Of a stretch of DNA of 64,000 bases, positions 12,498 through 43,268 are shown piece by piece. This DNA comes from Sphyrna mokarran. Taxonomy: Eukaryota. The notes below the pieces were generated by a model. It did no database searches and was not told the DNA's origin. It saw only the letters and a list, made by a program, of their open reading frames with translations. Where the stretch lies: contig JAGIQG010000003.1 of NCBI GenBank assembly GCA_024679065.1, positions 106,144,001 to 106,208,000 of the forward strand, in the 5' to 3' direction. Both the position numbers and the translations under genes were made by a program. Every line of letters begins with the position of its first letter. The first letter of the stretch is position 1.

Positions 12498-12710
12498 CAT
12501 GATGTGGAGATACCGGCATTAGACTAGGGCGGATACATTAAGAAGTCTCTTAACACCAGGTTAAAGCCCAACAGGTTTATTTGGTAGCACAAGCTTGTGA
12601 ATATTTGTGAACCCACCTCCCCACTCACCTGATGAAGGAGCAGTACTCTGAAAGCTTGTGATTCCATATAAGCCTGTTGGACTTTAACCTGGTGTTGTGG
12701 AATTTCTTAT
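12498..12710. mobile_element. Penelope-like element terminal-repeat insertion as an inverted pair, with hammerhead motif
   Basis: Arms 12539-12596 and 12652-12709 are reverse complements. Flanked by aataaaaaca/aataaagaca. Homologous to loci 29869, 31445 and 43033. Confidence 0.8.
12625..12661 (+). ncRNA. Minimal type I hammerhead ribozyme motif
   Basis: TCAC CTGATGA A GGAG cagta CTCT GAA AGCT T GTGA: stem I TCAC/GTGA, CUGANGA box, stem II, GAAA box, palindromic AGCU stem III, H17=U. Confidence 0.75.
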
Positions 12711-13179
12711 AATAAAGACACAGCATGTGGAAAGAAACAGAGTTATGTAATGGAATCTTTTGCTTGGAGGCAGGAAGGACACTTCATTAATGGAGGTTTT
12801 GTGGTGTTCCTGAATCCTGCCGCCATTCTGGTCTGCCAGAATTGGTTAAAAGAAAAGTGCCTGTCCCCTGGTCGTAATGGTGTCCACTGGTCAAATGCAC
12901 TTAGTGCCTAATCAAGGGAATGGGCAAAGGGCAGAATTTTTTCCACTGGCAGCCTTCTGCTGCCTGACCCTCCTCCCACTTCAGCCCCTGACCCTACAGC
13001 CCAGAATCTCTCCCTTCCCCATCTCACTTCTAGGTCCTGTGACTCAGGAAAAGTGCTGTTCTGGCAGCAGCCACTATCTCTGCTGTGGCGCTGTTGATCA
13101 CAGGGCTGCCAACCTTTGATTGCGAGCAGCTCTGGGTGGCCAGGACTTCAATCTTTGAGGACTTGATTCTTAGAATAGA

Positions 13180-13485
13180 ATTTTATCGGATCCCTACAGT
13201 GCACAAGGAGACCATTTGGCTCATCGGGTCTGCATTGACCACAATCCCACCCAGGCCCTATTCTCATAACCCATGCATTTACTCCAGCTAGTCCCCCTTA
13301 CACTAAGGGGTAATTTAGCATGGCCAGTCCACCTAACCTGTACATCTTTAGACTGTGGGAAGAAACCGGAGCACCTGGAGGAAACCCATTCAGACTCATG
13401 GAGAATGTGTAAACTCCACAGAGATAGTGATCCAAGCCAGGAATCGAACCCGGGTCCCTGATGCTTACCACTCTGCCACCATGCC
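13180..13485 (-). mobile_element. HE1-type V-SINE, tail A
   Basis: Reverse complement of the full HE1 pattern (ccctacagtgcacaaggagaccatttggctcatcg...ggaatcgaacccgggtccctg). Confidence 0.9.
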
Positions 13486-13894
13486 AATTCTGGAGGAAGA
13501 CCACTCGTGTCCCTTGGATTAAGATTGAGTTGGCCTTCGAAAGAAGAGTTAACACGGATCTGTTCAGGCTCAGAAGCCGGCAGCTCCTGTGTTTGAATAA
13601 TTACAAAGGCTGAGTATCTTGCACTCTTGCCTTCAAGGCCCATTTTCTAACTTCAATTGCATTCACGCTCTCTTGTCCCTGACCACAAATCAAACTAGAA
13701 CACCATGTCCGAAGGAATGCAACTGACTCCTGATACAAAGTACCCAGGTAACTTTCACCCTGCTTGATGGATTACAGTGTCTGTACCTCAGCCATCAGCT
13801 CAGTGACTCAGCCAAAGTTTGTCAGCTGCCAGACAATAACTGCAGACGTATTTGCCCTGGATTTTGCTGGCTTTCTAGAGCATCCACAATCAGC

Positions 13895-15085
13895 AGTCTG
13901 ATTGTGTTAACCCCCCTCACCCCGTCACAAAGCCTGATTGTGTTAACTCCCATCCCAAAGTCTGATTGTATTAATCCCTCTGCCCCAAAGTCTGATTGCA
14001 ATAACCCTCCCCGTCCCAATGTTTCATTGTATTAACCCCACTCCCAAAGTCTGAATGTACTAACCCCCCATTCTAAAGTCTGATTGTATTAATCCCCGTC
14101 CCAAAGTCTGATTGTATTAATCCCCGTCCCAAAGTCTGATTGTATTAATCCCCATCCCAAAGTCTGATTATATTAATCCCCGTCCCAATGTCTGATTGTA
14201 TTAAACACCCCCGTCTCAAAGTCTGATTGTGTTAATCTCCAGTCCCAAAGTCTGATTGTATTAACCCACCCCTCCCAAAGTTTGATTGCATTAAACCCCA
14301 TCCCAAAGTCTGATGATATTAACCTCGTCGCAAAGTCTGATTTTGTTAATCCCCCATCCCAAAATTGATTGTATTAATCCCCATGTTCCAAATTCTGATT
14401 GTATGAATCTCTGTCCCAAAGTCCGAGTGTATTAACCCATTACAAGTCAGACTGTATTAACCATCCTGTTCCATAGTCTGATTGTATTAACCTCTGTCGC
14501 ATAGCCTAATTGTGTTATCCTCCGTCCCAAAGTCAGATTGTATTAACCCTATTCTAAAGTCTGATTGGATTAACCACCATTCCAAAGTCTGATTGTATTA
14601 AACCCCCCATCCCAAAGTCTGACTGTAGTAAATGCCCACCTCCCCACTACCCGTCCCAAAGTCTGATTGCATTAAACCCATCCCAAAGAATGGTTGTATT
14701 AATCCCCCAGCCCAAAGTCTGATTGTATTAACCCCCCCCAGCCCAAAGTCTGATTGTATTAACCATCCTGTCCCATAGTCTGATTGTATTAGCCCCATCC
14801 CAAAATCTGATTGTGTTAACCTCCGTCGCATAATCTGATTGTATTAACCACACCTGTCCCATAGTCTTAATTGTATTAAACCCCTGTCCCATAGTTTGAT
14901 TGTATTAACCCCCATCCCAAAATCATTTATATTAACTTCTCCATTTCAAAGTCTGATTGTGTTAACTCCCCGTCCCAAAATCTGATTGTATTAACCCCCC
15001 GTCCCAAAGTCTGATTGTATTAAACCCCCTGTCCCAAAGTCTGATTGTATTAACTCTCCCCCATCCCAGAGTCTGATTGTATTAT
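13895..15085 (+). repeat. ~27-28 bp minisatellite, roughly 40-45 units, consensus CCCAAAGTCTGATTGTATTAA(C/T)CCCCGT
   Basis: Directly visible tandem array, with identical consecutive units around 14077-14160. Confidence 0.97.
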
Positions 15086-18000
15086 CGTCAGTCCAGATGT
15101 TTCACCATTTTAACCTCTCTCTACTGATCTCATGGTTTTATCCTCCTGCTGTCCAAAAATCACTGTTTTAACCTCTCTCCAAAAGTTCAACTGTTTTAAC
15201 CTCTCTCTCCAAATGTTTTATTTTGTAAGCTGTTTTTTCTGAAGTCGCTATTTTATCCTCTCTCCTGAAGCCTTGCTGTTAAGTCTCATTTATTTTAATC
15301 ATTTTCTCAAAAGCCTCTGTTTAAGTCTGTTCTTCCATTCTGTTCCTATATTTAAATTGATTACCAGACTTTTCCATGCTCTCTGGCAGGTTTCAATCTC
15401 TCCTATGGTGCTTCCCTTCTGTGCATTTACATTACTTTGTGACATTTTTAAACTTCATTTTACTCTATTCTGTCCACCCATCCAGTTGTTATTGCTTACC
15501 AGAATAAATTTAATCTGTATCTTAGCTACTTTATATTTCAGTATGCCTCACTTTCATTGCTGTTCAAACTCCAATATTTTTGACCAGTTAACTTTGGGCA
15601 GATTCCCTCTTCATTCCAGCAAAATCAGCAAACTTATTGTCCAACACCTTTATCTTGGACTCTTCTTCCCCTTTATTTCAACTTGAATCCAATTAAATTG
15701 TGTCAGCTATTTGCCATGTGTTCCCTGCTCTCAGGTTGCTTGCTTGCTCTGCATTGTTATATAATGATATACACCTAGAGCCAGTTCAAGCAAGACCACA
15801 AGGAAACAGCTCTGAATGCATTCAATGGAACCCTTACTTATTTTGACCGCAAATGATTATTTAATCCGAGTCCACTTTAGGTTAGTTCAGAAACCCATTA
15901 GTGTAATTGTATGACTGCTGCTCGAAGTTGGCAACAAGGATGCACACTTGTGGAGCACAGAGATATACAATAAATAAAGGGATTTTTTTTCCTAATGGCT
16001 TCCCTTGAAGTGCCTATTCCAAATAGCGGAAGTTCTGTTCAGGGCCTTTATTAGTCTTATGCAAAATTTTTCAGTTTTCATCGCTGTGCACCCTGCATGA
16101 ATAGCTTAGGCAAATAACGCAGGGTTTCAGCACTTGACCTTTTCATGGCATTATTAGTCCTTCTGCACCACAAGGTCGTTGCTTTCTTTAGTTGCACTTA
16201 ACTTTTGATGGTTCACAGGAAGTTGGTTAATGTTATGCGGAAAACATAATGGTGGTAAAAGACCAATCAAAAACTGCACTGGTAATAAAGATACTGAATA
16301 ACATTTTGGTGATTCCAGTAAGAAGACACTTAAGACAGGTGCCTAGACCGCCAATTAATTTTCTCAACTGGGAGCCTTTCATTTGTTAGAAAGGCTTCTG
16401 GATGGGTGACTGGTTAGAATACCAGAGAAGTCTGTAATTCAACTGGCTCAAATAAAGTAATGGGGACTGCAGGTGGGGGAAACATGCTGCAGAAAGAAAT
16501 TAGAAATTATTCATGAGAGAAAGCTAACTTTCAATTTGGAATATTGAAACTATCTGTTCTGGTAGGTTTAGAGTTAACAGACAGGAGTTTTTTTTTAATA
16601 AAAGCAGTCTTCTGCTATCCTAATAAACCGCCGACTACAGCACTCTAACTTCTGTCAGTAGAGATTAATGGCACCTGAAATTGCAAATGCAAATTGTCAC
16701 CAATACGTGTTCCTCTTATTCAAAATTTTAGCTCAACTGGTGGCAGCCATCTTATTCTGCAGACACGGGCAAGGTCATTTTACCAGGATAAACACAAAGA
16801 CAAATTTTCCCAAGCACAGTGAATGATACTTTACTGGCTAAATCTTTGTGCAGCAAGTACAGTATCCTTTAACAGTCTTCCATACAAATTGTAACTTGTA
16901 CATGCATGTGTTGTTACGTTATTTGCAGGTTATGAACTGGCAGGGTCATTTCACAATGGCACCATTAGAAGCACAGTTTAACGCACTAATTCTGTGCATG
17001 ACTAGCTATTAGGCGGTGGAGACATCACGTCTAGACAAGAACGGGTGATTTATTTGCCTTTCAGTTGCAATTCACTTCAGAGTCTTGTTTCATATCTATT
17101 ACAGATGAAATGACCTAAAAAGAACTGATTAATGCCCTCATTGAATGGAAACCTCCTGGCAGTCCGAACTGTATTCTGCAGACAAGTTTGCAAATAGCTG
17201 GCAATTAGCAAGAATAGATGCACTGGAAGTTATACAAAGATTAGACATGGTATTTAATTTGAAAGTTGAGATTACAGTTGTGGCCAATATTTCATCATGT
17301 GCTTTTAGTAGTGAAATTGAATTCAACAATGATTCTTAAAAACAAAGTTTCGTGCAATCTGCAGTGCAAGCACTAATGAAGTGATATCAAGGCACGGTAT
17401 GTCACCTTAATTCAAGGGACAAAGGGAAAGTGATATTGATTCACTGTGTGGGGAAACAGTTCAGAGCCAAAAGTCTTTAAATTCCCATCATTTGCATCAG
17501 CAGTATGTTCACCTTGCATAATAAATGTAATCCAATAGGAACAGACTGTGTTATAGCACATAATTAAAAATTACACTAAATCCTTCTCTTCTGTCCTAAT
17601 TATAGGAAACAATCAAAATCATTTTTGTATGGAACTTGCACTATAAATCAATACTTCCAATTTTGTTATAAAAAGATTAATGTAAGATACTTTAATGTTT
17701 TGGAAATATTTTGTAAATTGAGTAATCTTAAATGAGAAGAATATTTTGTTTGCAAACATAGCATGTACATCCTTTAATAATTCATCATGCCATTGTAAAA
17801 GAAATTCTTCCAAATATATGCCCAAGTCAAAATGACCTGAAACTGATTACATTCAGGAAGCAACATTCATGGATTTGTAGGTCATCTGAGACACTTCTCT
17901 TGCTTTGCCCGATCCTGCTATTCCCATAAGTTAATGTAAGTCAGGTGCAACTTTGATTATGTTTGCAGCAGAGAGCTTCCTTCAGGGAAACAGTTTCTTG

Positions 18001-21000
18001 TTTAAACAAAAAATATTTTGTTGCTCACATTTTGTAGCATTAAATCTACAACAATGGGAGTGGTGGCATCATTCTAGTGAAACAGTAGAGATAAAGTTCA
18101 AGGTATAATAATGATATTTACTGGGGAATGGGTATTAATATAAGAGTCCATCAAAAGCTAGAATGGATTTCCAGGAAGAACTTTTCAGATCAAGACACTG
18201 AATATGATTAAACAAATGAGAAGATAGTCAAGTACTATCTTGAAAGAATGAGAATGAGATCAAAGGGCTGAAAATATTTTTTGAATTGTTTTGCATTAAG
18301 AGTTTCCAAGTGGCAAGTTACAACATTGTAATCTTTTCAGTTAATGGATGGAATTGATGTTATTGAACCTAAATGTCAAAAATCACTGCATCCATCTAAT
18401 TCTTCAGCTCCTTAACTTTCCCAGTTTTAATTTCTCCACCATTAGCAACCATGCTATCATCTGTCAAGGTCTAAAGCTTGGGGATTTCTCCCTATACCCT
18501 TCTTTCTCTCTTTCCTCCTCAAAAACATTGAAGCAAGTCATTTTTGATCATCTTTTTGGTCAAATATCTTTATATCACCTTATGTTGCTCGGTGTCAAGT
18601 TTGCTTTACGATGCTTCTGTGAAACATGTTGGGAAATGTTGGGATATTATAGCATCCACTTAATGGGAATTAATGATCATTGGCTCGTTGGATATTTCTA
18701 GATGAATTGTCATGTGTTATTTAAAGCATTCCCTGGGAACAAAATTAGTAACACAACGCAAAATGTTTATTAAAAATCCACTGATATCAGTTCAGACATC
18801 ATTTCCACTGACCTAAATGGGTTCCCTGTTGTCCGTATCTTTAGATCATTACATGATCTGCAACCTTTATTAGTTCTGTGATTTTGATCTTTTGCGCCTC
18901 TTCCTTTCCATCTTCACACCACTGGTGAAGAAGCCTCCCCGTTCTCTGGAACTTCCTCCTTGACTTCTTTATCTGTCCATAAGACCTCCAGAAACCTCTT
19001 GGAGACCCATTGTTCTGCCCAAGAATTTTGTCTCCTACCTGTCACAACATGGCTCAGCTGTTATTCCTTTATTCTGTGCATCCATTGTGTTTTCTGTTCC
19101 TCTATCTGAAGCATTTTGGAATATTTTCTTCACAAAAACTCTACAAAAAAGCAAGTTGTTTTTGGCTCCAGAAAATAATTGCCTGAGCCCCAACTTTGTG
19201 AAGCAAGTTTGTTTGCTGAATTGAATGTTTCAGTCCAGCATCACCTCCCACTAGTTAACCATCTGGGTGAAATTTTTGGCAAAGGCAATATATAAATTTA
19301 CAAAGCTATTTATATGCAAATGTTTTTGTACTGTTGCATTCATAATTTGATTTTGGCCAAAGAAGGAATGGTTTGCTGTCAGCTACAACAAAAGAAGGCA
19401 GAACTTTCCATTCTGGAGATCAGGTGTGTGGTATGAAAGGAAAGTCGATATGATCCTTACTGGGTGCCAGTCAAATTTATCTGCCTGATGTTGCACATTT
19501 CAGTTGGTTAATTATGCATCAACAAGAAGCTCTTTAAATGGAGAAGTGATGGACAGTCCATATTCTGTCTGACATCACAGCTTCAGCTAGTGAGTGTGAA
19601 GGGCAGTGACCATCTTGGGATCCAGGTCCAGCAGTTTCTGCCAGATTTGCACTTGGATCTATGTACCGTGAGAGGGGATAAGGCACCTCAACTCCCTCTG
19701 TGTACCCCTTTTCCTCAAGGAATCAAGATCCTTTGGACACCGAAAGGCAGGAGACACATCAACCTGACACCCTGAGAGCATCCACCCTGTACAATGCAAG
19801 GATGCCCTGCTGCTTTAAGTGCTCTCTGCCCTTGACTCCATCAACTTCAGCAGGTCAGACTGAAGAGGGTGCATCTGGCCCAGAGCAGCACACTCTTAGC
19901 TGGCTAGGGCCATTCAGGTGTCAGGCCTCCCAAGGATGCTTGTCAAAGTTATCTCAGATAACAGTGCACAAAGCCTGTATCTCTGCTGCAGATATCAAGG
20001 CTACACTTAACCTAGCGGTAACGTTTTGACTGTCCCATTGTGGCACAGGTATTCATTCACTGTATATAACCTGCATTAGTATATTTCATGTTTCTCCCTC
20101 TCAGTCTCAGGTTTTGAATGGCTAATCCATGTGACGCAAGGTCCCACATTCAATCAAGGATGCAAAATAAATTCCCTTCTTCCCCCATCTTGACCTCAGT
20201 TCCATTAAGTCTCACTCAATTTCATCACAGTGTATCTCCTTTAGTTCACATCAGCAACATGAACAAAAACATATCCTTTTGAAAATGGTGGATGGACAAT
20301 ATACAGGTACCCTTCTATCATGGGCAGACATAATTTGACCTCAGGAGTATTGTTCATCAAGGTTCAAGAATATCCCAGTGCAGTTGTGCTGAAGTGTAGT
20401 TTCTGGATGTTATAAGTATTTATTGTGACTAATGTTATAATCTTATCACTTAAGTGCACTTTGCAATGGTCTTTATTCTAAGGCTGTGAATTTTTGGAAA
20501 AGTAGTATTCGACACTGATCACTATAACTTTTCCAGCCTCCCAGAATCAATTTTTCTTTTTGCATTTAAGGCTGAGTGTTATTCCTGTGTTAGATCCCAC
20601 TCTTCCTATGCCTCTTATCAGGAAAGCTGGTGTTTGGAAAGATGATGTTGTCTGGATGGATGTAGCTTCTTCTTCAGAGGGTCAACACTAATCATTGACA
20701 AAAGTTTTTTGTGATAAAGTGGCCTTTCTAAGCTGCTGTCACATTGGTATGAATGCGCTCATTTGTGCAATAGCATTTTATCTTATTGAAGCATGTCATG
20801 GCCACAGACATGTCGTCTCCATGATTGAAAGATATGCATTACAGGTAGTTGCTTCAGGATGTGTGCTAGTGCAGTGCTTATCATGTTCCCTGTGACTGCA
20901 TGATTCCTAGGCTACTGTACCTTCCAACAATGATCCCATTGTTAGCATTGAAAGTAACTTGTACTTTCTCGGTGATTATTGTGAGATTGATGACCTTTTC

Positions 21001-21596
21001 TAATATATTGAAAATGACAATTAGGGTGTTGTTGTGCCCCTGAATCAAAGCTTGAAGAGAACTTTGATCATGAAAACATGCCTTCACCTTATTCCTCTTA
21101 AAATCTGACAGCTGGGAAGTTGCCTTTGGTCTGCCAGGTTATACCTTGGCAATTGCACCCATGTGTACCTCATCTGAATCCTCCCCCTCTTCAGCCTCAT
21201 CCCCTTACAAGTCCTCCTCACTGGAGGAGATGTCTAGCTCCTCTTGTGTCTCCCTATGGCAACATATCCCTCCTTTGCAATGCTAGATTGTGTAGGACAC
21301 AGCAAAAATGATAATAAGGGCACTCTCTGCACTACTTATTGGAGAGCCCTGCTTCATAGGTACAAACATCTAAAATACATTTTCAAGAGACCAGTGGTCT
21401 ATTCTGTTGAGAGCCTTGTGGCTGAATATACAGGCATTGCCTATTGTAGCTGACAAATGAGTATCATTAGCCATGTCTTCTGGGGGTATACCTTAACTTC
21501 AAGGAACCAGTCCTCTGAGTGCCAAATCAAATAGCTTTGGCATCTGGAAGTGACTCAAAATGTATGAACATTGTGAACTAACTATGTACTGAGCGT

Positions 21597-21895
21597 GGAC
21601 AGAATGGTGGACAGTGGTTAGGACTGCTGCCTCATAGCACCAGGGACCAGGGTTCAATTCCCAGCTTGGGTCACTGTGTGTGGTTTACATGTTCTCCCTG
21701 TGTCTGTGTGGGTTTCCTCCAGGTGCTCCAGCTTCCTTCCACAGTCTGAAAGACATGCTGGTTAAGTGCATTGGCCGTGCTAACTTCTCTCTCTGTATAC
21801 CCAAACAGGTGCTGTTGTGTGACAATTGGGGGATTTTCATAGTAACTTCTTTGCAGTGTTAATGTAAGTTTACTTGTGACACTAATAAATTTTAA
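21597..21895 (+). mobile_element. V-SINE, tail B
   Basis: Head, V-domain and ...cagtgttaatgtaagtttacttgtgacactaataaa. Confidence 0.9.
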
Positions 21896-22126
21896 GAAGC
21901 ACACTGGATCTGCTTCCTGTGATCACAAATAAGTTGAACATTCCAAGAGTGAAATACTTTTCTATTGATGAATTTCACTGGCTGCTGCCATGGAGTTCTC
22001 AGGCTACATGTATAAGTTGATGGTGTTCTGCACTTGCAGGAAGCCTGAGACTGCAGCAAATCCCACTGCTGAAGACAGCCTTGCTTGCTTCATCCAGAAG
22101 GTACAATGGTTGCGGATGGGGCATTA

Positions 22127-22692
22127 AGTATAAAAATTAACGAATGATGTTACAGTTGTATAAAATATTGGTTAGGTTACATTTGGAATACTGTGTCCAA
22201 TTCTAGTTACCACGCTATAAGAAGGTGGATACTTTGGAGAGAATGCAGAAGAGGTTTATCAGGATGTTGTCTGCTGTGGAGGGTATTAGCTATGAGGAGA
22301 GATTGAATAAATTGGGATTGTCCTCCCTAGAAAGACAGAGGCTGAGAGGTGACCTGATAGAAGTTTATAAAACTGAGGGGCATAGATAAGGTGAAAAGTT
22401 GAAAGCTTTTTCCCAGGGCAGAAATGACAATTATAAAAGGGGCACAAGTTCAAGATAAGGGAGAAAATGTTCAGTAAAGATGTGCAGGGAAAGTATTTTA
22501 TACAGAAGGTGATGGGAGCCTGGAATGCACAGCCAAGTGAGGTGGTTGAGGTAGTTAAGTTAGTCATATTTAAGACTTATCTTGATAGACATATGAACAA
22601 ATGGAGAATAGAGTAATATAAGCGGTTGGTTAGGTAGGTAAACATGAGTAGCACAGGCTTGGAGGGGCTGTCCATTGCTGTATTGTTCTTTA
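22127..22692 (+). mobile_element. CR1/HER1 LINE 3' fragment
   Basis: Decayed C-terminal ORF2 (tatgaggagagattgaataaattggga...agaggtgacctgatagaagtttataaa) and tail tgctgtattgttctttattctt. Confidence 0.85.
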
Positions 22693-22694
22693 TT

Positions 22695-28900: not shown

Positions 28901-29868
28901 GATGGGCCGAATGGCCTCTCTCGGCACTGTAGGGATTCTATAATTTGCAAGAAGACTAACGTATTGTCACTTTGTAGGATAAGTGGTGGGTTGAGGGAAA
29001 GTTGTTTTCTATGAGAAGGGGGAGGGCGGGGTAAGGTTGTACTGTCAAAGGCAGGCTTTGTCCCACAAACAATATTTCAATGATACTTCTTGTAGTAAAT
29101 GTTACCTATGTCTCAATTGCTCCATTCTGTGATATTCCTCCAAGGGGATATCATACTGCTCATACTATGGTGAGGTGCATTTAGAGTAAGTGCTGTAGGC
29201 AGACTGACAAAACAAAAGTCTTCAGAGTTCTCTTTCTCCTAGAGAAATGCCTGTTCGAGTATGACCAGTCTCTTCTGCCTCACTTCTTCTGGGCGGCACA
29301 GTGTTAGCACTGCTGTTTCACAGCACTGGGGACACCGGTTTGATTCCTGGTTTAGATCACTATCTGTGCAAAGTCTGCACGTTCTCCCCTTGCCAATGTA
29401 GGTTTCCTCCAGGTACTCCGGTTTTCTATTGCGGCCCGTCATAGAACTTGGTGCAACTTACGTTGGATTACTGGGAATGCAGAAAGCTCAAAGCACTTTG
29501 AAATGTGTAATTGAGACCAATGCTGACATTGGCTGTAGGCTTCAAAAATACAAGGATATTTTCCGTAGAATGTTGGGATCCAGAAGTCAGCCCCATATGG
29601 GGGTCCCACCCATTTGGCAGCATGCAGCATGCCCACCAATGCAATATTATGGGGAGCAGTCTCCAAATTGATTGTCCCTATACTCTCTGTATAGAACTGC
29701 TCAACTAAAGTGATCTGACACGGCTGGGGTCATTGGGTTGTGGAGAAAACCACTCCACAAGGTTGTTAACTGTGGCCCTGTCATTAGGGCATAGAGTCTC
29801 TGACTTCAGTGGCCCTCTAGCTTACTGCCAGGTGGTCAGCTTGATTGAGCTGGTGGCCTTAAAAACAG

Positions 29869-29987
29869 AAGTTTTTAGGTGGCCTAAAAAACATTTGCCT
29901 GACGAAGGCTGTAAAGTCGAAAGCTCGCGGATTTACTATCAAATAAATTGGTTGGATTTAAAATTGGTGTTGTAAAACTTTACTGTA
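29869..29987 (+). mobile_element. Penelope-like short insertion with hammerhead motif
   Basis: Perfect 11-bp TSD cttaaaaacag (29858-29868 and 29988-29998). Downstream part ttactatcaaataaattggttggatttaaaattggtgttgt is shared with locus 43033. Confidence 0.8.
29895..29930 (+). ncRNA. Minimal type I hammerhead ribozyme motif (intact core)
   Basis: TTGC CTGACGA A GGCT gtaa AGTC GAA AGCT C GCGG: stem II closed by a GUAA (GNRA) loop, H17=C. Confidence 0.75.
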
Positions 29988-30133
29988 CTTAAAAACAGTG
30001 GCAAACAGTTCTGTAATCAGTAAGAGTGCCGGCATAAAATGGCCTTTATGTGGAGTCCTAATTAACAAACTAGCTGCTTGCTGGTGTGGATTGGGCAATT
30101 GTTGTGCTTTCTGGTCTGCCTGGGAAAGTTCTC

Positions 30134-30183: not shown

Positions 30184-30184
<1 letters not shown>

Positions 30185-31257: not shown

Positions 31258-31765
31258 TTTGATTTGATTTGATTTATTATTGTCACATGTATTGGGATAC
31301 AGTGGAAAGCATTGGAGGAGGAGGGAGGAGGAGGACAGACAGAGCATGCCATTCATAGAATACGTATGGGAAAAGAAAGAAGAAGGTGCAGAATATAGCG
31401 TTGTAGCCATAGCTAGGATTTAGAGAAAGATCAACTTAATATAACCTTATAAAGGAGCAGCACTCTGAAAGCTTGTTGGATCTGAAAACTTGTTGGATTT
31501 TAACCTAGTGTTGTGAAACTTCTCACTGAACTTAATATAAGGTAGGTCCATTCAATAGCCTCATGGCAGCAGGGAAGAAGCTGTTCTTGAGTCGGTTGGT
31601 ACATCATCTCAGATATCTGTATCTTTTTCCCGATAGAAGAAGGTGGAAGAGAGAATATCCGGGGTGCATGGTGTCCTTTGAATATACTGGCTGCTTTTCC
31701 GAAGCAGCGGAAATGTAAATAGAGTCAATGGATGGGTTTGTGTAGTAGACTGAGCTTCATTCACT
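31258..31765 (-). mobile_element. Rex1/Babar-type LINE 3' end
   Basis: Minus translation HPGYSLFHLLLSGKRYRYLR*CTNRLKNSFFPAA is the Rex1 C-terminal motif. Tail aatacatgtgacaataataaatcaaatcaaatcaaa. Confidence 0.8.
31445..31528 (+). mobile_element. Degenerate Penelope-like hammerhead insertion nested in the Rex1 element
   Basis: Perfect 12-bp TSD aacttaatataa (31433-31444 and 31529-31540). ccttataaaggagcagcactctgaaagcttg is a mutated copy of the 12625 core. Confidence 0.8.
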
Positions 31766-33157: not shown

Positions 33158-33595
33158 AATGTTCAGTTGGTAGCACACTTACTACTGAGTTTAGAACGTT
33201 GTGGGTTCAAACCCGGTCCAGAAACGTGAGCAGAAAAGTCTAGGCTGACAGTCCAGTGTAGTACTGAGGGAGTCCTACACTATGGGAAATGTTGCCTTTT
33301 GCAGGAGACGTCAAACCCAAAGTTCCAGATGCTGCTGCTCTCTGGTGAATATAGGCCTATGGCCTATTGTCAAGCAGAATTACTGGCGGAGGGGGCAGTT
33401 ACTCCTGGTGTCCCAGATTCCTCAATCAGCATTTCAAAAATGAGATTACCTGGTTGTTATCACCTTGCTGTGTGTGGGCAAATTGACATCTTTCTTACAT
33501 AACTACGCTGACTTTGTATGTATTGAAATTACTGGTAAGTGTTCGCGATGTCCTGAAGTAAAAAAAATTGTTATATAAATGTAAGTCTTTCTTTG
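33158..33595 (+). mobile_element. SacSINE1-like DeuSINE
   Basis: tRNA head (gttcagttggtagcac...gtgggttcaaaccc), Deu-like core (cagtgtagtactgagggagt...gagacgtcaaacc) and L2-type tail (tatataaatgtaagtctttcttt). Confidence 0.75.
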
Positions 33596-34177
33596 ATTAC
33601 TCTTAACTCCAGAGTTGTGGCACCTCAGCCCCAAACATCACACAGTGAGCTCTACCCCATTGTGCCAGTGCTCCCAGCATCTGAATGCACCAGAATGTTG
33701 TGGGCCAGCTCTTTGCCCATCCATTGTTTCACTTAGTAAAAGTCAAATTTGGGACAGCCTGCAACTTAGGAGGTAAGTTTTCCCATTTACTTCCCTGAAT
33801 CTGAAATCAGTAGGAGTCAGAGTGCCTAATCTTAGGAATAAATGTTAAAATGGTGAGTTGCATTCACTGGTGAAGGACATAACCCGTGCCATCAAGTGCG
33901 GGTGGTGGAGCCAGAGGATAAGCAAGAATTTACTGGCTCCAGGAACAGCTTGGATATTCTTCAGCTGACAAGTTCAGTGATCCCTCCTTTATGAGCCCAA
34001 TGTTTAAAGGGATGATGTTGTCTGAAGTACTGACATTTTCTACAGCCAATACAGAATGCTCTGGGAATCCTGGAAGGTCTGCTGGCTAGTATGCAGTACA
34101 ATCACTTGTTACTGTTGAGACTTGGACTCCAATTGGCTCTGTCCAGCATGCAAAGGGATTGAAAAAAAGAGACCAAT

Positions 34178-34297
34178 TGGGCAGAATTTTCCAATCCCAC
34201 TTGCCCGGGGGAATTGAGACACAGATCATGCAGGGGTCCGTTGATCCTGGGCAGGATTCCCCAACCCTGGGGCAAGCATGGCTGAAAAATCCCACAC
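34178..34297. mobile_element. ~120-bp MITE, probably Harbinger-type; related copies at ~41152-41268 and ~43557-43688
   Basis: Imperfect TIRs gggcagaattttcc.../...gaaaaatcccacac. Internal ggtccgttgatcctgggcaggatt is shared with the other two copies. Confidence 0.55.
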
Positions 34298-35004
34298 TAT
34301 ATATATGCAGCTCGTTCTCTACGTTCCTACTGCACAACTTGTGGGACATGCTAAAAGAATGACCAGCTGGAAGAACATGGCTGGAGAAGACACTGCTGTC
34401 TCTCAGGGTGATGTACTGTCAAATTCTCTAACTTCCCTTACGACATTAAATGTGACAAAGTGAACAGCCGCTGCAATATTGTGGCTTACTTTGTGGTCTA
34501 TTTCAAGGAAGCGGTGACCCACCTCCCTCCCAAGGTGCCTACACTGAGGCCCAGCAGTGAACACCTTGACACTGCAACTAGGGAAACACCTGGAAGAAAC
34601 AGGTTCACGAATGCAGACATCGCATTCTGTCATCAAGAGATGCATCAGAGTAGCAAGCACTAAATTCACGAGTTGCAGAATTCGTTGAAATTCTTCCATT
34701 CGCTGTGCACAGAGTATGGGAGGATGATGTAGTGCAGGATTTTGACAAGAAATGGGAACCCCATTTGTTGAATTAGTACAAATATCATTTTCAGGTGAGT
34801 TGTTCTACTCTCTACATAATGCAGAGAAAGAAAGCACAGGAACATTAATATACAGGGCAGATGGTACTTGGATGAACTTTGTGCTTGGCTCTGGCTTCCT
34901 TCAGAGTCCATCAGTAAGAATCATTTCTGGCTGTTTGCCTTTAACTTGCTCAGGTCCTGGCTCTGTTTGCCTCCTTCAGCAGCTCCATGCTTACAAATAT
35001 GAAT

Positions 35005-35140
35005 GACAAGTTTGTGCAGCAGGCACAATACAATAATTATCTTTGGAAACTTGGCAGAATTGTATTGTAGCACAACTCTCACATCTGTCCAGCAATCTAA
35101 AACACTGCTTCAAGAGCCTTGGCATGTTTTCAGCGATGAT
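35005..35140 (-). mobile_element. PIF/Harbinger transposase C-terminal remnant
   Basis: Minus translation IAENMPRLLKQCFRLLDR / VLQYNSAKFPKII resembles IEQTIGLLKxRFRCLDRSGGxLQYSPxKVxxII. Confidence 0.5.
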
Positions 35141-35141
35141 C

Positions 35142-37071
35142 TTAGTGCGTATTAATTGTCACGTACCTCCAGGAAGACTCATCAAATTCAAGTTGGAGAT
35201 GTGCATGGCTTATGTCCAACTTTGAAAATATTTGGCCCCCAGTTAACCTGGCATACAGGTCTTCAATCCAGGGCATGGGGCATCTGTCAAGTTTAGCAAC
35301 CCTGTTGACACTAAGCTTATGGTCTCCACAAAGTCTTATCGCTTTATCCAGCTTAAGGACAGGAACAACACATGTGGTCCACTCCGCAAACTGTACAGGT
35401 CCTATTTTGCCAGCTTTTCCAGGCATTCCAATTCTGACTCTATTTTTTCCAAAAGGAGCATATAATAGTCTTGCTTTAAAATATTTAGGCCTAGCATTGG
35501 GGTTGACATAGATCTTAGTTTTGGCTCCCCTTATTTTTCCAAATCTTCCTTGGAAGACTTTGGGGCACTTATTGATGACTTCATGCATCTCCCCCATATC
35601 TAGCCTGCAGATCTTCAGCCAGTTCACTCTGATGTGTTGAAGACAATCTCTGCCCATAAGGCAAGTCTCTTGTTCCCATAAAATGAGGAGTGGAGGTTGA
35701 GCTGACCACTGCCTGTCAGTTATTAGGGGTACCATTGATTTTTTACCTGCAATGGTTCTCCTTTGTAGGCGGCCAGATCTGGCCTTTGTGTTTCTGAGTT
35801 CAGGAACTGCATTTCAGTCTGGAAGTGTTCATATTGTCTTCTCCCTGGTGAGAGATCACTGCCCCCATATCCACTTACATTTTTAATAGGTGGCCATTTA
35901 CTAACAACTTCACCATTATGGGGACAACCTTTGTCATGGAGATGTGATTTAATTGCAGTGCAGGGCCTATCTGCAAACTACAGTCTGGCATTGTTCTTGA
36001 TCTTTTATCAGAATAGCACATGTTTTGACTGTCCCTATATCTTTGTCTGGGTTGTGTTCTGCAGAAGTTCCAGTAGTCCACCATCTGGCATCTACAATCT
36101 TCAGGAATATGCTCCATCGGAGCATGGAAAGCTGTCCCTCCCCTTCCTTAACTGTCTGATGGTACAACTTGGGCTCCACCACAGTAAGAGATGGTGTGAT
36201 AATTTACTGATACCAATAACTCTTAATTGAGGGATAGATGTGGTATGAGCCCCCTCTCCCAATCAATAAACACTATCTGATGTCTCCTGTAGTTCCTGAG
36301 TTCTTTTCTCTGCATTCTCCAGTGATAGAGCTATCCCAATAGCCTTCTTTAGATCCAAGTTGGGCTCTGTCACATTGGTAATTCCGCAGACCAGTCTATC
36401 TCACAACATGTTGTTCAGAAGTGGCCTGAAGTCACAGTGCCAATTTTCGTAACTTGATCAGAAATTTGGTGACAGATGCCCCAGTGGGTTCACTGTACCG
36501 TGTTTAAGTCTTATCGCTGGAATACTAATCCATCAATTCATTTAAGATTTTGAAGTCAGGGTGTCTGGGTAGCTCAGGCATTTTATTACACTGAAGGTCA
36601 AGACTCTGCATGCCGTCAACTGGATCATTTTCTGCACCTCGTCACCCTCAATATTCTTGGCAAAAAAAATACATGCCCTCTGCCAGTCTTCAATATTTGC
36701 ATCATAGGCTTTAAGTTTATCAAAGAGAGTCAGTTTTCTTACCGGAGATTACTTGTTTCGACAATAAAGATGGTCTGGAGGGAAGATAAGAAGTCGCTTT
36801 ATTGCTTGTCACCGATATAATAATCTTAGCGAGGCCAGTCTTCCATCACCATCAGCCTTTATGCACACCGTGTTCAAAATGCTGTTCAGCAGTTACAGTG
36901 TACAAGGCAGCCCCATAATCTTTTGACTGCTAACCTCAGTGGAACCAGCTAGTTTTCAAACCCCTGCTGCTCCTTTCTTATTGGGCGAACCGCCACTCAA
37001 CTATTTGGGGAGTTTGATTTCTACGAGATCCATGGGAGATCTATTGACGATCCCCCATGGCCATCATAACA
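35142..37071 (-). mobile_element. Truncated, decayed Ty3/Gypsy LTR retrotransposon (5' LTR, gag, protease, N-terminal RT)
   Basis: ORF 35142..35735 has RLCGDHKLSVNR...PMPWIEDLYARLTGGQIFSKLDISHAHLQL...TINTH. Protease VNGHLLKM*VDMGA near 35860-35900. Degenerate PBS near 36805-36815. Putative LTR ~36816-37071 starts TGTTATG. Confidence 0.88.
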
Positions 37072-37080
37072 TCGATCTGT

Positions 37081-38748
37081 GGTCAGCACAGTGACTCAGT
37101 GGTTAGCACTGCTGCTTCACATTATCGGGGACCTGGTTCAATTCCAGCCTTGGGTGACTATTTGTGTGGAGTGTGCACATTCTCCCTTTGTCTGTGTGGG
37201 TTTCATAGAAACATGGAAACTAGAAGCAGGAGTAGGCCATTCGGCCCTTAAAGCCTGCTCTGCCGTTCATCTTGATCATGGCTGATCATTGAATTCAATA
37301 TCCCGATCCCTCCTTTTCTCCCGATATCTCTTGATCCCTTTATTCCCAGAAGTTACATCTAATTTCTTCTTGAAATCAGACAACGTTTTGGTGTCAACTA
37401 CATTCAGTGAATTCCACACATTCACCAACCTCTGAGTGAAGAAATTTCTCCTCACGCCAGTTCTAAAAGGTTTACCCCTTGTCTTCAAATTATGATCCCT
37501 ACTTCTGCACTCCTCCACCATGGAAATATTCTTTCTGAATCTATCCTGTCTAATCCTGTTAGAATTTTATAAGTTTCTATGAGATCTTCTTTCACTCTTT
37601 TAAACTCCAATCAATATAATCCTAACTGATCTAATCTCTCCTCATACGACAGACTTACCATCCCAGGAATCAGCCTGATAAATCTTCACTGTATTCACTT
37701 TATGGCAAGGACATCCTCCCTCAGATAAGGACACCAAAACTGCACACAATATCCAGGCATGACCTCACCAATGCCCTATACAATTGCAGCATAACATTCC
37801 TATCTCTACACTGAAATCGTCTTGCTGTGAAAGCCAACATTCCATTTACCTTCATTACTGCCTATTGTACCTTTGTGCTTACTTTCAGCCTCTGATGCAT
37901 GAGGACACCAAGTCTCGTTGAGTATCCACCTCTCTCGATTTACACCAATTCAAGTAATAATCTGTCTACCGTTTATTGCTACCAAAGTGGATATGCACTC
38001 ACACTGTCCAAATCACATTGAAACACTTCTGCACCCTCCTCACAGCTCAGCCTCCCACCCAATTTTGTATACCTGCAAATTTGGAGATAATACATTCAGT
38101 TTTCTCCTCCAAATCATTAATATACAATGTGAACAGTTGGGGTCCTAGCACAGATCCCTGCAGAAGTTCACTAGTCACCGACTGCCAATCAGAAAAAGAC
38201 CCATTTATTCCGATTGTTTCCTTCCTATCTGCTAACCAGCTTTTTATCCATCTCAGAACTTTACCTACGATCCCACGTACTTTAACTTTATATAGTAGTC
38301 TGTTACGTGAGACCTTATCAAAGCCTTCTAAAAGTCTAAATAAAATTCATCCACTGGTTCTCTGTAGGTAAACTCAACTAGTTACATCCTCAAAAAGTGC
38401 CAATAGATTTGCCAAGCGTGATTTACCTTCTGTAAATCCATGCTGAATTTGTCTGATTAAAACACTGCCTTCCAAATGCTGAGTTATGAAATCCTTGATA
38501 ATAGACTCTAGCAACTTCCCCAGTACCAGTTTCCTCTGGATGCTTCAATTTCCTCTCACAGTTCAAAGAATTGCATGTTTGGCTGATTAGCCATGCTAAA
38601 TTACTCCTGATTGTCTCAAGATATGCAGGTTAAGAGAATTAGTGGAGGAAGTATATGAAGTTATAGAGATAGGATCTGGGTAAGACGCTCTGTTGGAGAG
38701 TTGGTGCAGACTCAGTGGGCTGAATGGCCTGCATTGTTGGGATTCTAT
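37081..38748 (+). mobile_element. HE1-type V-SINE split in two (37081-37204 and 38530-38748) by a CR1 insertion
   Basis: The SINE stops at gtgggtttc and resumes at gtttcctctggatgct; gtttc is duplicated. Confidence 0.85.
37205..38529 (-). mobile_element. CR1/HER1 LINE, 5'-truncated (~1.3 kb)
   Basis: Tail (atagaaacatggaaactagaagcaggagtaggccattcggccc), ORF RSRDHNLKTRGKPFRTGVRRNFFTQRLVNVWNSL, and RT-region sequence. Confidence 0.9.
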
Positions 38749-39770
38749 ACCTGTGACACTAATGCACAACACACTGAAAATAGATAAGAGATGCATTACA
38801 ATATTAAAATCACTTTTAATGATAGACGGATCACTTATGATGATTTTGATATTCTAATTGGCTCTTCCCTATTTTTAGTGAGCACTTTGCAGTTTCCCAG
38901 ATCACTTCAGTTGTGTACTCATGTATACGCAGAGTACGAGTAGACGGTTAGCAATCAAATTCCTTGCTTCTTTTCTGACCAACATGGCTTTCCCACTCTT
39001 TGCTGCCATCAACAACTGTGCTGATTGAAAAGAATACCCTAATATTCCCATGGGATGTCCATAATGCACCACTGTGCGTAAACAAACCTTTTTTGGATAT
39101 TTTGTCTGTATATCTCATGTATTAAATTTTGATTATTGTAACAGACAGTTTGAACATGTGATAATTAGTACACTGAGCTTCATATCCTGCTCAATAATAA
39201 TATTCCTGCCTGAGCTGTACCATCATATTTTATATTTGTAGTGGGTAAATGCTAATTAATAACTGTTTATTTCACCCAATTTCAATGTATCTGTTTCAGT
39301 GTTAACTATATTTTGCTTTTCTGTACAGCTTTATACCATCTTAAAATGTAGATATTCTGTTTGCTTTCAGCAAATGAAAATATCTGCAGTCCAAATACCA
39401 GTAGCTTTGTGTGTTAAAATTGTATCTACAATATATATATGGTTATACTTTGCTTTCTATAAGAGAATGCTGAATAGTTGATCGGGGTGTGACTTTACTC
39501 CAGATAGTCATTGCTATTTATTCATGCTTTTCAATACTAATTCAATCTTATTTGATATCAAAGGACTGGTTTAATATTACAAGGAGTAGGAAACAGGGAG
39601 GATCCCATGTAACAGAATGAGCTAAAGGTTGCGAAACAGCCAAGAGGAAGTGGATGACTGTCACTGAGTTCAGATCTAGCAATATGTAGTGTGTTTAAAA
39701 ACTCTCAAACCTGTTCTATTGTAGCTCATTTCCTTTATAAAACAAACCATAAAGTACCAGCAAGAAACCA

Positions 39771-40087
39771 GGGTGGCATGGTAGCACAGTGGTTAGCAAT
39801 GCTGCCTCATAGCACCAGGGACCCAGGTTCAATTCTGGCTTTGTGTCACTATCAGTGAGGAGTCTGCATGATCTCCCTGTGGGTTTCCTTCAGCTGCTCT
39901 GGTTTCCTCCCAGAGTCCAAAAGCGTGCGGGCAAGGTTGATTGGCCATGCTCAGTTTCCCCTTTGTGTCAGGGTGAATTAGCAGGGTAAATACGTGAGAT
40001 TACAGGGATAAGGCCTGGGTGGGATTGTTGTCAGTGCAGGCTTGTTGGGTAGAATGGCTTCCTTCTGCATTTAGGGATTCTATGATT
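39771..40087 (+). mobile_element. HE1-type V-SINE, tail A
   Basis: Full HE1 pattern ending tttagggattctatgatt. Confidence 0.9.
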
Positions 40088-40149
40088 AAAGAGAACTGGA
40101 CAGAAGGATTCAGAACGTGGCAACTTCATGCGAGCTATCGCCAGCATAT

Positions 40150-40355
40150 CCTCTAATTCTATTTTTTACTCTTGTTCTATGCATTTAAAACTGTACTCTA
40201 CATCCTAGCTATGAATGTAACACTGTATTCTGCACTCTCTCCTTTCCTTGTCCCCTGTGTACTCTATGAACAGTATGATTTGTCTGTATAGCACACAAGA
40301 AACAATGCTTTTCACTGTATCCCAATACATGTGATGATAATACATCAAATCAAAA
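40150..40355 (+). mobile_element. Rex1-type 3' tail
   Basis: gaatgtaacactgtattctgcac...ttttcactgtatcccaatacatgtgatgataatacatcaaatcaaa; same tail as at 31258 and 27640. Confidence 0.75.
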
Positions 40356-41391
40356 ATATTTGGAAGCCTCAACACAGAGTGCAATCAAGTGGGCGCTGGC
40401 TGTTAGATTCCTTAGACATTAATACAGTAGTCTGAGATGATCCAGAATGAAAATCCAAAACATAATCCAAGGCTGTCTGCATCAGCAGCCTGCCATACCA
40501 ACAATAAATATTTGAGATGTAACATTGTCCTCTGCTGTCTCACAGTAGAGTGAAGTATTTGGAATCCAGGATGACTTTCTCTTTTCAAGTTATTCTGAGC
40601 TGCAGTGTCATTTCTGACACACATGCTTATGTGTTAGTGCCAAGGTGTGGGCTTGAAAGGGTACAAGTCAATAAATTTGATGTTTTTTTCAAGGCTACCA
40701 CAAGGTTGCAGAGAATTAATAATCAGTAACCCTGCACATGATGGTCACTTGTATATACAGAAAATGTTTGATGCCACTTCCTGTTAAGTGTGAAGACCTT
40801 CCTATGATCTATCTTTCTTGTGCCAGATCCTGCAGTAGCCTCCTGCTGGGTCTGAATCACAGAGTATCAGCAGGCCATAAGTTTAACATTTGACGTTCAA
40901 TATGTCCTCCTCACATTTACACCACAAAAGCATTCAGATTTGCACAATATAAATCAGGCTGCCAGTGATGCTTGCTTTGGAGCAGGTGTTGAATGCTGTT
41001 AAAGACATCATCACGTCCAACTTTAAACCTCTTGTCCAGAAATGAACCATTGAAAAGTGGCATTGTATCACTTAACAGAAGGACCGGATGAAATGGGAAG
41101 GAGATGGGGTAGCTCTGTTAATAAAGGATGATAAGAACAGCAAGAAGACATGGGGTAGGACTTTCTGGCTGCGCTCACCCTAAAATTGGAATACCGTCCC
41201 TCCCCCCAAGGTCAACAGACTATCGTATGGCTCTACCTCTCCCCCACAACCAGGAAAATTCCGATCTTAGTCTTGGTTCAGAGGATTAAAATGTGGAATT
41301 AGTTTGGAGATGATAAGAAATCAGAAAGGAAAACACTTAACTAGACTGTAGGATATGTATAACTTAATAAATAATGGGGCTTGTAAGAAAA

Positions 41392-41750
41392 GGCAATGGC
41401 CCAATGGTAATCTGACTACTTTATTAATCCAGAAACTCAGCTAATGTTCTGGGGACCCATGTTCAAATTCCATTATGGCAGATGGTGGAATTTGAACTCA
41501 ATAAAAAATATTTGGAATTAAGAATCTACTGTTGACCATATAACTGTTGTCGATTGTCAGAAAAACCCATCTGTTTCACTAATGTCATTCAGGGAAGGAA
41601 ATCTGCCATCCTTGCCTTATGTGTTTGGCCTATATATGACTCCAAAGCCACAGCAAATGTGGTTAACCCTCAACTGCCCTTAGGCAACTAGAGATGGACA
41701 ATAAATGTTGACTAGCCAGCACGCCACGTCCCACAAATGAATAATAAAAA
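41392..41750 (+). mobile_element. tRNA-headed SINE, second family
   Basis: caatggcccaatggtaat...atgttcaaattccattatggcagatggtggaatttgaac...ggcaactagagatggacaataaatgttgactagccagc; homologous to 6598-6926. Confidence 0.8.
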
Positions 41751-43032
41751 TATTGAGCGGATGAATCAACTTGGAAAAAGTAGTCTGGAGGATAAGTTCA
41801 CAAAGTGTATTCAGAACAGTTTCTTAGAGCAACATATCCTGGAACCAACTAGGAACAAACTATTTTAGACCTGATAATGTATAATGAAACAAGATTAATT
41901 AATGACCTTATAGTAAAGGATTCTCTTGGTAAGAGAGTGATCATCACATGACAAAATTTCACCTTCTGTTTGAGGGTGAGAAATTTGGGCAAACTGATAT
42001 CTTATTGCCTTGTTTAAGTTTGTGAAGGTAGAGTTGGCTAAAGTGAAATTAGAAAACCGGTTAGAAGTTAAAAATGTAGAGAAGCAGTACCTGGCATTTA
42101 ATAAGATATTTCCTAGTTCTCAACAAAGATATATTCTATTTGGAAGTACTCTATAAGAAGGATGCATCGTCCAGGGACAATTAAGGAAATTAAGAATAGT
42201 TTCAAATTAAAAGAAATAATATTAAGAAAATTTTAGAAACCAATGAAGCATGGCTAAAAAGTAAAGAGGGAGAAATTGGAGTACGAGAGAAAACTAGCAC
42301 TAAATATAAAAACAGACAATAAACGGTTCTACAATTATATGAAAAGATGAGAACAGCAGAAGTGAGCATTGGTTCCTTTGAGAGTGGGATGGGGAATTGA
42401 TAATGGGAAATCTGGAAATGATAGAGGCTTTAAGCACATATTTTATACTTGCTACCAAAGTAGAAGAAACAGAAATCGTTGAAAGAATAGCAGAATATCA
42501 AGAGAATTATGTGAGTGAGAAACATAAAACAACTATGATCACTAGAGAAATGACACTAGCAAAACTAATAGATCTACACATCCCTTGGACCTGATACTCA
42601 GCATCCTCGAATCTAAAGGGAAGTAGCTGTACATGCATTGGTTGTAATCTCCCAAAATTCTCCAGATTCTGGGAAGGTTTGACTGTCGCACAACTATTTA
42701 AAAAAGGAGCAAGACTAAAAGCAGGAAACAATGGACCAGTTAATATAATGTATGTCAGTGGGAAAATGATAGAACCCATTATTAAAAAGGTGATATCTGG
42801 ACATTTAGAAAATCAGCCAGAATCATTAAAGGGAAATATATTTGATTTTATAAATAATAAAAGTTCTTTGAGGATGTAATGAACACGGTTTTAAAGGAGA
42901 AAGAGTAACAACAGTGATTTAGATTTTCAAAAAATATTCAATGAGGTGCCACATAAAATGTTACTGCACAGGTTAAGGGATTAGGTTTGGATAATATCTT
43001 AGCACGGATAGAAGATTGGTTAACCAACAGGG

Positions 43033-43268
43033 TAGAAATACAACCAATTTATTTGATAGTAAACTCACAAGCTTTTGACCCTCTGGTCTTCGTCAGGTGA
43101 ATGAGGTGTTCTGGTCTCAAACACCAGAATACTTCATTCACCTGACAAAGATCAGAGGGTCAAAGACTTGTGAGTTTACTATCAAATAAATCGGTTGGAT
43201 TTAAACCTGATGTTGTCAGACTTCTTACTGTGTTTACCCCAGTCCAACGCCGGCATCTCTACATCATG
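43033..43268. mobile_element. Penelope-like inverted pair with two decayed hammerhead motifs
   Basis: Arms 43036-43115 and 43123-43202 with a 7-nt loop. TSD-like taaccaacaggg/tgactaacaggg. Minus-strand core TCAC CTGACGA A GACC agag GGTC aAA AGCT T GTGA. Confidence 0.85.

Follow-up and report, generated by a model that had tools for sequence, protein, structure and literature searches.

Penelope-like elements (PLEs) are general in vertebrates (PMC6155905, PMC4350176), from which the clades Neptune and Poseidon have been reported (bioRxiv 10.64898/2026.07.22.740005). As far as described in PMC8557442, the endonuclease-bearing (EN+) Neptune elements possess one open reading frame (ORF) comprising a reverse transcriptase (RT), a CX2-5CxxC linker, and a GIY-YIG endonuclease at the C terminus. 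Their pseudo-long terminal repeats (pLTRs) are arranged in partial tandem or inverted orientation and contain a hammerhead motif, the copies are heavily truncated at the 5′ end, and a tail of 30-40 bp is often present at one end only, as is also stated in PMC3846280. According to the account in PMC11167929, the protein of the green anole element PAc (Poseidon_Ac; Penelope/Poseidon clade) cuts both strands at AT-rich sites, primes internally at two tail-defining sites, and uses uncleaved RNA, while the PAc hammerhead cuts only with protein present. All the Neptune features listed, and the PLE anatomy given in PMC3846280, were also found in an element of the shark Sphyrna mokarran. Four short inserts of this family are located in a 64,000-nt stretch of contig JAGIQG010000003.1 (positions 106,144,001 to 106,208,000; hereafter the window), within one intron of the gene CADPS. 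The initial annotation, made from the letters alone, had taken them for tiny non-coding, retrozyme-like or short interspersed element (SINE)-like units that spread with a conserved hammerhead ribozyme. Our analysis indicates that they are very probably 5′-truncated 3′ ends (pLTRs) of one autonomous Penelope-like lineage and represent likely dead-end insertion products; they likely belong to an already known kind rather than to a separate mini-element family.

The link to Penelope elements, which had been suspected before, is supported by the surroundings of related copies. The body of locus 2 is 100% identical to copies joined to an RT/GIY-YIG ORF, and the relatives of loci 1, 2, and 4 extend upstream to a variable degree, through a 3′ untranslated region (3′UTR) of approximately 220 nt and then into the end of the GIY-YIG coding region. 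The proposed search for linkage to such ORFs was successful for all three stem II types of the window, each of which was found downstream of the endonuclease ORF. Among 101 position-sampled copies with an intact core, 29 reach this ORF, including 9 of the 36 that share the older type of loci 1 and 3, and one copy (L204) matches the full unit with 97% identity over 2,973 nt. Searches with pieces of the ORF yielded natural copies with open frames near 900 amino acids. The full-length order is pLTR with hammerhead, tail, ATG, an ORF of 893 amino acids, the 3′UTR, hammerhead, and 3′ end, and the pLTRs occur in partial tandem and/or inverted orientation at the 5′ end. The exact junction of tail, ATG, and ORF is present 299 times in the genome (control 0).

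The 893-amino-acid ORF encodes an RT with a YIDD motif (RVT_1, E 7e-10, over the cut-off), a linker with the sequence CHSNLCKTC (CX4CXXC), plus, C-terminally, a GIY-YIG domain, the match of which (E 4e-4, 21.1 bits) is just under the cut-off of 22.6. A PDB search with the ORF gave 0 matches. Among the best 120 of 1,967 homologues, which are RT plus GIY-YIG proteins of sharks, turtles, and invertebrates, the closest are 84-88% identical and stem from three shark genera, in agreement with the shark host assumed initially; turtle proteins follow at about 45%. A shark database protein annotated as an epn2 isoform contains part of the element RT, which is either exonisation or an annotation artefact. 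Judged from the protein sequence, the element is an endonuclease-bearing PLE, most likely of the Neptune clade: its linker is of the CX2-5CxxC type common to Neptune and Nematis, and Neptune is preferred because the host is a vertebrate. Contigs from three RNA runs cover the element in 30, 28, and 30 of 30 bins, although contigs cannot show starts, ends, strand, or real transcription. In the 3′UTR of one full-length copy (L237:6208-6276 region), the hammerhead is closely preceded by a GT...AG stretch of about 68 nt that contains branch-point-like words; no RNA contig skipped this stretch among the joints listed. In the Penelope element of Drosophila virilis, an intron lies just upstream of the hammerhead.

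Four homologous loci had been recognized in the window, and a profile built from 32 natural copies detected exactly six arms there, i.e., these four insertions (Table 1). The earlier description of their structure did not mention that loci 1 and 4 are head-to-head inverted pairs, with arm complementarities of 83% and 87%, respectively; loci 2 and 3 are single copies on the plus strand. The hammerhead core claimed in front of each body is intact at loci 1 and 2 but degenerate at locus 3 and in both arms of locus 4, and the core pattern matches the window twice (locus 1 right arm and locus 2; 0.01 expected). The left arm of locus 1 is devoid of a core because it begins at the AAGCTT palindrome. 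Target site duplications (TSDs) of 10-12 bp, as described initially, are present at loci 1-3, but not at locus 4: its seeming 10-bp TSD shares bases with ATGACTA, the beginning of the element's own ORF, into which the 3′ end of the right arm extends. The left arm of locus 4 has a 3′ end shorter than the usual short end. The window copies span different ages, locus 2 being very young (96/96 identical to copy L084, with many 100% copies in the genome) and locus 3 old (83% identity to the nearest copy compared); the locus 1 right arm shares 91.5% with the nearest copy compared. The inserts had been described as lacking coding sequence, which is true of the window (no tblastn match to the element ORF below E 0.15) but not of the family, which encodes the ORF.

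Table 1. Coordinates of the four inserts and of the flanking CADPS exons within the window
Feature	Position	Strand	Remarks
CADPS-family exon preceding the host intron, end of the C2 domain	9688..9827	+	PF25341, E 5e-12
Locus 1 left TSD	12490..12499	+	10 bp, 1 mismatch to 12711-12720
Locus 1 left arm	12498..12596	-	5′-truncated; long (tailed) 3′ end stopping at the ORF start codon; profile columns 79-183
Locus 1 right arm	12604..12709	+	older GGAG/CUCC-type subfamily; short (tail-less) 3′ end; profile columns 29-142
Locus 1 hammerhead core	12629..12657	+	minimal type I, intact
Locus 2 left TSD	29858..29868	+	11 bp, exact repeat at 29988-29998
Locus 2 5′ filler, non-element	29869..29891	+	23 nt; contains sequence nearly matching the target flank, GGTGGCC(T)TAAAAA
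Locus 2, single young copy	29892..29987	+	begins 7 nt upstream of the core; short 3′ end
Locus 2 hammerhead core	29899..29926	+	intact
Locus 3 left TSD	31433..31444	+	12 bp, exact repeat at 31529-31540
Locus 3, single old copy	31445..31528	+	degenerate core CUUAUAA for CUGAUGA; short 3′ end
Locus 4 left TSD	43026..43032	+	7 bp, exact AACAGGG, not AT-rich; repeat at 43272-43278
Locus 4 left arm	43033..43122	-	GACC/GGUC subfamily; G12 to A (AAA for GAA); profile columns 28-122
Locus 4 right arm	43123..43272	+	degenerate core CUGACAA...AAAGACU; long (tailed) 3′ end
CADPS exon following the host intron, start of the PH domain	46880..46946	+	22/22 residues identical to CAPS-1 chain 7vs3_A

Outside the window, the family is abundant. 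The genome-wide search that had been proposed (CTGAYGAA-N12,13-GAAAGCTH in 2.77 Gb) returned 35,149 exact matches, compared with a single match of the reversed pattern used as a control. An unselected sample of 964 kb, composed of four regions chosen regardless of content, contained 105 arms in 74 insertions (31 pairs and 43 singles), with 0 matches in shuffled sequence; about 4.9% of this sample matches family references. In comparison with the Neptune elements as described in PMC8557442, the copy number is very high (about 77 insertions per Mb, or about 2x10^5 in the genome by extrapolation), and no microsatellite insertion bias was evident, without formal test, at the shark loci seen. Copy length forms a continuum from 37 bp to full-length elements of 3 kb. 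Likewise, the 5′ ends run continuously from inside the pLTR to full length, with an excess at 0-15 nt upstream of the core, so that the truncation close to the ribozyme noted earlier is real (20 of 105 arms). The 5′-end hazard is 0.016 per nt in this hotspot, 0.005-0.007 on either side, and about 0.002 further up. Not one of the 105 arms has its 5′ end within 3 nt of the predicted cut site. This is what an uncleaved RNA template would lead one to expect (cf. the account of PAc in PMC11167929), and the possibility that the copies are made from the 3′ cleavage product of the ribozyme was rejected on this ground.

The junctions between the two arms of inverted pairs are private. From 136 pairs, 77 clean junctions were obtained, the remainder having no clean match or no long-plus-short combination, and 75 of these 77 show a unique pair of breakpoints. 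Multi-copy ribozyme arrays were seen neither in the window nor in the 964 kb or the other loci, and of same-strand neighbours only eight are listed, two of them duplicates or overlaps. At one locus (L313:182-1359), a tandem array of 155 bp x 7.6 (98% matches) without a hammerhead core carries an inverted piece at one end; its unit consists of the pLTR 3′ half and the first 55 nt of the ORF and begins a few bases past the predicted cut site, which suggests repeated template jumps or a small circular template. At locus L208, a whole inverted-pair insertion is present twice (1520-3953 and 6926-9365), 5.4 kb apart and with the same breakpoints, i.e., as a local duplication.

The 3′ ends are bimodal and lie about 36 nt apart, the longer one at the ATG of the ORF. 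Short, long, and other ends amount to 47, 36, and 18 in the 101 position-sampled copies and to 48, 51, and 6 of the 105 unselected arms. Single-arm insertions of the unselected sample use both ends evenly (21 short, 21 long, 1 other), and in inverted pairs one long end is combined with one short end in 89 of 98 classifiable cases (P 5e-18). This count is based on 117 pairs, of which 19 with an unclassified end were left out and a few loci are duplicates; the proportion is 55 of 61 without the end-selected loci and 25 of 26 classifiable pairs, of 31, in the unselected sample. For the Neptune elements, the corresponding statement in PMC8557442 is "often". TSDs were found in 77 of the 117 pairs, with a mode of 13 bp and an AT content of 0.66 against a background of 0.59. 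Rough breakpoint values from the 964 kb had suggested a fixed 36-nt offset between the arms, which would fit simultaneous copying of both arms from one RNA; the exact breakpoints showed no peak at +30 to +39 (3 of 77), and this model was rejected. No paper describing the shark family or counting the one-tail rule was found, although Repbase and Dfam may well hold the family and paper supplements may list shark motifs.

The minimal type I architecture of the hammerhead given in the initial annotation held up: the core CUGANGA/GAAA/UH with stems I and II and a palindromic stem III was found in two of the six window arms. It corresponds to the minimal hammerhead ribozymes of metazoan PLEs, as presented in PMC4209133, in being of type I with G10.1-C11.1, a palindromic 15-16 region without loop III, and an extra nucleotide separating position 9 from position 10.1 (A in 234/234 shark copies). 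Common to both are also the many sequence families with compensatory changes and the prevalence of single motifs from truncated PLEs, with some close pairs on opposite strands. In contrast, stem II comprises 3-5 bp in the shark and 7-8 bp in schistosomes, and about 35,000 intact shark motifs stand against about 4,000 in coelacanth and 9,000 in Xenopus; sharks are not named in the results and discussion of PMC4209133. An Rfam scan of the window up to E 5 matched no hammerhead family, and its best match (MIR841, 33.8 bits versus 200) was discarded, since it only reflects the hairpin of locus 4.

Covariation was assessed against 2000 shuffles in the 101 position-sampled copies, the positions being set by reference to the invariant core. 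The positions II.2, II.3, II.4, and I.2 were paired beyond 2000/2000 shuffles (96, 96, 70, and 84 of 101 paired), whereas II.1, I.1, I.3, and I.4 did not exceed the shuffles and are not informative; of the stem I covariation described before, only that of I.2 was retained. A tree of 96 long copies, calculated with the ribozyme excluded (59 of 92 inner branches weak), arranges the subfamilies as a ladder of GGAG/CUCC, the GGGG/GAGG types, GACC/GGUC (locus 4), GGCA/GGCC, and the young GGCU/AGUC (locus 2) and GACA/UGUY. In these copies, II.2 is paired in 96/96 via G-C, A-U, and G-U and II.3 in 92/96. The tree requires 7 joint changes at II.2, 10 at II.3, and 8 at I.2. The joint changes are few and mostly occur on one side at a time; the fold is thus kept between master subfamilies, but on a handful of independent events. 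The statement that stem II differs between loci and still pairs is correct for several subfamilies, but the G-U pair of locus 1 is most simply explained by CpG decay of C11.1-G12. In the youngest subfamily (L233-L252), stem I is reduced to 2 bp in many copies (UUGC/GCUU or GCUA), N7 is often G, and variation in stem II and its loop far exceeds that in the ORF (97-99% identical). The two pLTRs of copy L237 (3273-3299 at the 5′ and 6298-6327 at the 3′ side) carry different stem II variants, which argues against a single circular monomer as the template for this copy; in inverted pairs, both arms mostly carry one and the same variant.

Selection on the fold, as proposed initially, is visible only between master subfamilies, and the inserted copies lose the core, which is intact in 29 of 78 arms covering it in the 964 kb. 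The catalytic G8 is altered in 17 of 82 and G12 in 27 of 87 cases, both in CpG context. When two locus 2 monomers were cofolded, the AGCU dimer helix was not the minimum-energy structure; energy models do not capture hammerhead cores, so that this result says little. Lunse and colleagues reportedly observed cleavage of PLE hammerheads as dimers. Cutting of the shark motif would need dimerisation or the help of a protein.

A plausible course of insertion can be drawn up by analogy with the green anole element. The element endonuclease would cut both target strands, and the RT would prime internally on uncleaved RNA at one of two sites. Synthesis would usually abort early. Either one cDNA would be joined to the far target end (loci 2 and 3), or two cDNAs, one per strand, would be joined head to head (loci 1 and 4). 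Each window insert would be a separate aborted integration by the autonomous element, and the hammerhead would be kept by selection on master elements only and decay after insertion. At locus 2, the 23-nt filler derived from the target flank suggests that the 5′ junction was repaired by end-joining. With the adjoining flank the filler forms a small hairpin, and it has the look of templated end-joining. Likenesses to PAc, as far as covered by PMC11167929, are the two 3′ ends one tail apart, the AT-leaning targets, the hammerhead near the ORF start, and the lack of any sign of cleaved RNA as a template. Unlike in the reported PAc arrangement, where the ORF begins at stem II and both initiation sites are inside it, in the shark about 95-100 nt separate the core from the downstream ORF start, and the long end falls on the ATG. 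Furthermore, the PAc reactions reported in vitro gave no strand difference in the start site, whereas the arms of the shark pairs differ almost always.

Independent amplification of short hammerhead RNAs in their own right by a Penelope enzyme, the retrozyme- or SINE-like view of the initial annotation, has some observations in its favor. Tiny insertions are numerous (115-238 bp in 16 of 31 pairs, ≤135 bp in 22 of 43 singles), the 5′ ends cluster just upstream of the core, and tandem PLE-pLTR-derived retrozymes are described for one chondrichthyan genome in bioRxiv 10.64898/2026.07.22.740005. The shark inserts also share a type I hammerhead, the relation to PLE pLTRs, and long TSDs with metazoan non-LTR retrozymes as characterized in PMC7229834 and Li et al. 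(2026, preprint), and like those of PMC7229834 they are non-coding. However, these retrozymes are described as tandem monomers of 170-400 nt with canonical hammerheads, expressed as circles (PMC7229834), whereas the shark inserts occur singly or head to head, their cores are minimal, and their junctions are private. Tandem monomers with complete hammerheads are absent from the window and the 964 kb, and a fixed unit with a common 5′ end across loci, typical of a SINE, was not observed either. Lengths are continuous up to full ORFs, locus 2 shows no base that distinguishes it from ORF-linked copies, the sole tandem array is without a core, and no copy begins at the cut site. The private junctions largely refute independent units already, and we regard them as quite unlikely.

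Several observations nevertheless weigh against reading all inserts as aborted products of the autonomous lineage. Random truncation does not account for the 5′-end hotspot upstream of the core, and one pair of loci (L061 and R1104:13067) has common breakpoints. A minor non-autonomous subfamily could be hidden among the insertions of the genome, of whose 2.77 Gb less than 2 Mb were read. Non-CpG core columns differ less than conserved flank columns (3.6% versus 5.7%, P 0.007); we attribute this to conservation among master elements, although some post-insertion constraint could be present, and subfamily differences in the flank explain the contrast equally well. Finally, the Neptune assignment is founded on the linker motif and the homologue set rather than on an RT tree with named references.

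The truncation hotspot could be accommodated within the autonomous-element reading if the tiny copies represented run-off cDNAs that are complete: with an mRNA start some 6-10 nt upstream of the hammerhead, an RT primed at the 5′ pLTR tail would meet the RNA 5′ end after 95-135 nt. At base level, 25 of 74 well-matched unselected copies end at -2 to -11, the two arms of a pair frequently share this stop (rank correlation 0.68 between arm extents), CA is present at -7/-6 in 95 and 93 of the 96 long copies, and 24 of 39 copies crossing the ATG extend no more than 137 nt upstream of it. The anole element was shown to prime internally close to its ORF start in the experiments described in PMC11167929. 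On the other hand, the hotspot is broad rather than one base, the positions beside CA are equally conserved, of the 39 copies crossing the ORF start no more than 5 have their 5′ end 2-9 nt upstream of the core, with at least 9 extending far beyond it, and RNA or cDNA folding or microhomology in the ribozyme stems could yield the same excess; the RNA data are contigs only and cannot show starts. The CA is in what we take to be an initiator-like context. Run-off is our favoured account of the hotspot, although we hold it to be somewhat less likely than not. The inverted pairs could also originate from fold-back, i.e., self-priming, of a single cDNA, as was proposed for rotifer PLE palindromes (PMC3846280); the arms usually belong to the same subfamily and often have similar end points. 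Fold-back requires a tailed arm that reaches at least as far 5′ as the tail-less arm, but of the 28 pairs in which both arms extend >40 nt upstream, 14 have the longer arm on the tail-less side, 13 on the tailed side, and 1 has arms of equal length. Because either arm can be longer, simple fold-back was rejected, and an origin of the pairs by fold-back is improbable. The most extensive version of the autonomous-element reading combines coordinated two-site priming on uncleaved RNA, tiny copies as run-offs, and a ribozyme at the mRNA 5′ end with its job outside template formation; we put it forward tentatively and with considerable doubt. If true, it would provide a Penelope integration rule in vivo, whereby each inverted insertion receives a tailed and a tail-less end. 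For models in which, for example, ribozyme-cut circles are copied by rolling circle, the nearly strict one-tail rule and the lack of copies that begin at the cut site act as constraints.

The location of all four inserts in one CADPS intron was confirmed by a C2 exon before and a PH exon after them and by MUN exons 57-166 kb downstream on the same strand. The exons are predicted, and the intron between them (9828-46879) comprises 37 kb; the reading frame continues from 9827 to 46880, and an exon at 122-233 also matches the CAPS C2 family. Four insertions correspond to the ordinary density for an intron of this size (2.8 expected, P=0.32), and a clustering of inserts in this intron was rejected. 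The two intact cores lie in sense orientation to the host gene, which would suit intronic ribozymes exapted to act on the CADPS pre-mRNA. Apart from the ordinary density, the cores broken at two of four loci and the very young insertion at locus 2 speak against it, and minimal hammerheads did not cleave as monomers in the assays reported in PMC4209133. Predicted stem I/II pairing in the local context is below 0.03 for both intact cores. At locus 1, the arm-arm hairpin is predicted at -84 kcal/mol and the pair probabilities of stems I and II are 0.00-0.013; the core is predicted to be sequestered within this long hairpin in sense RNA. An effect of the inserts on CADPS is improbable because the intact cores are predicted to be misfolded in context and minimal hammerheads were inactive as monomers, and exaptation appears extremely unlikely.

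The locus itself is unimportant, being ordinary repeat debris in a large intron. The family, however, offers a convenient natural data set, with its insertions (about 2x10^5), its young and nearly identical subfamilies, and its natural ORFs of full length, in which questions on PLEs such as the origin of the tail and of the inverted arms and the purpose of the hammerhead become countable. The same intron harbors a long minisatellite (13884-15080; unit 28-30 bp, about 39 copies). A SINE-like repeat of 300 bp with a tRNA-like head is present in about a dozen copies on both strands of the window, e.g., at 4043-4184, 4945-5086, 9890-10195, 21599-21900, and 48522-48827. A long repeat is present in inverted orientation at 37539-37907 and 61782-62137. 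Both copies, and the flanks of locus 4 (42850-43450), are presumably fragments of a CR1-type long interspersed element, in one of which locus 4 is nested.

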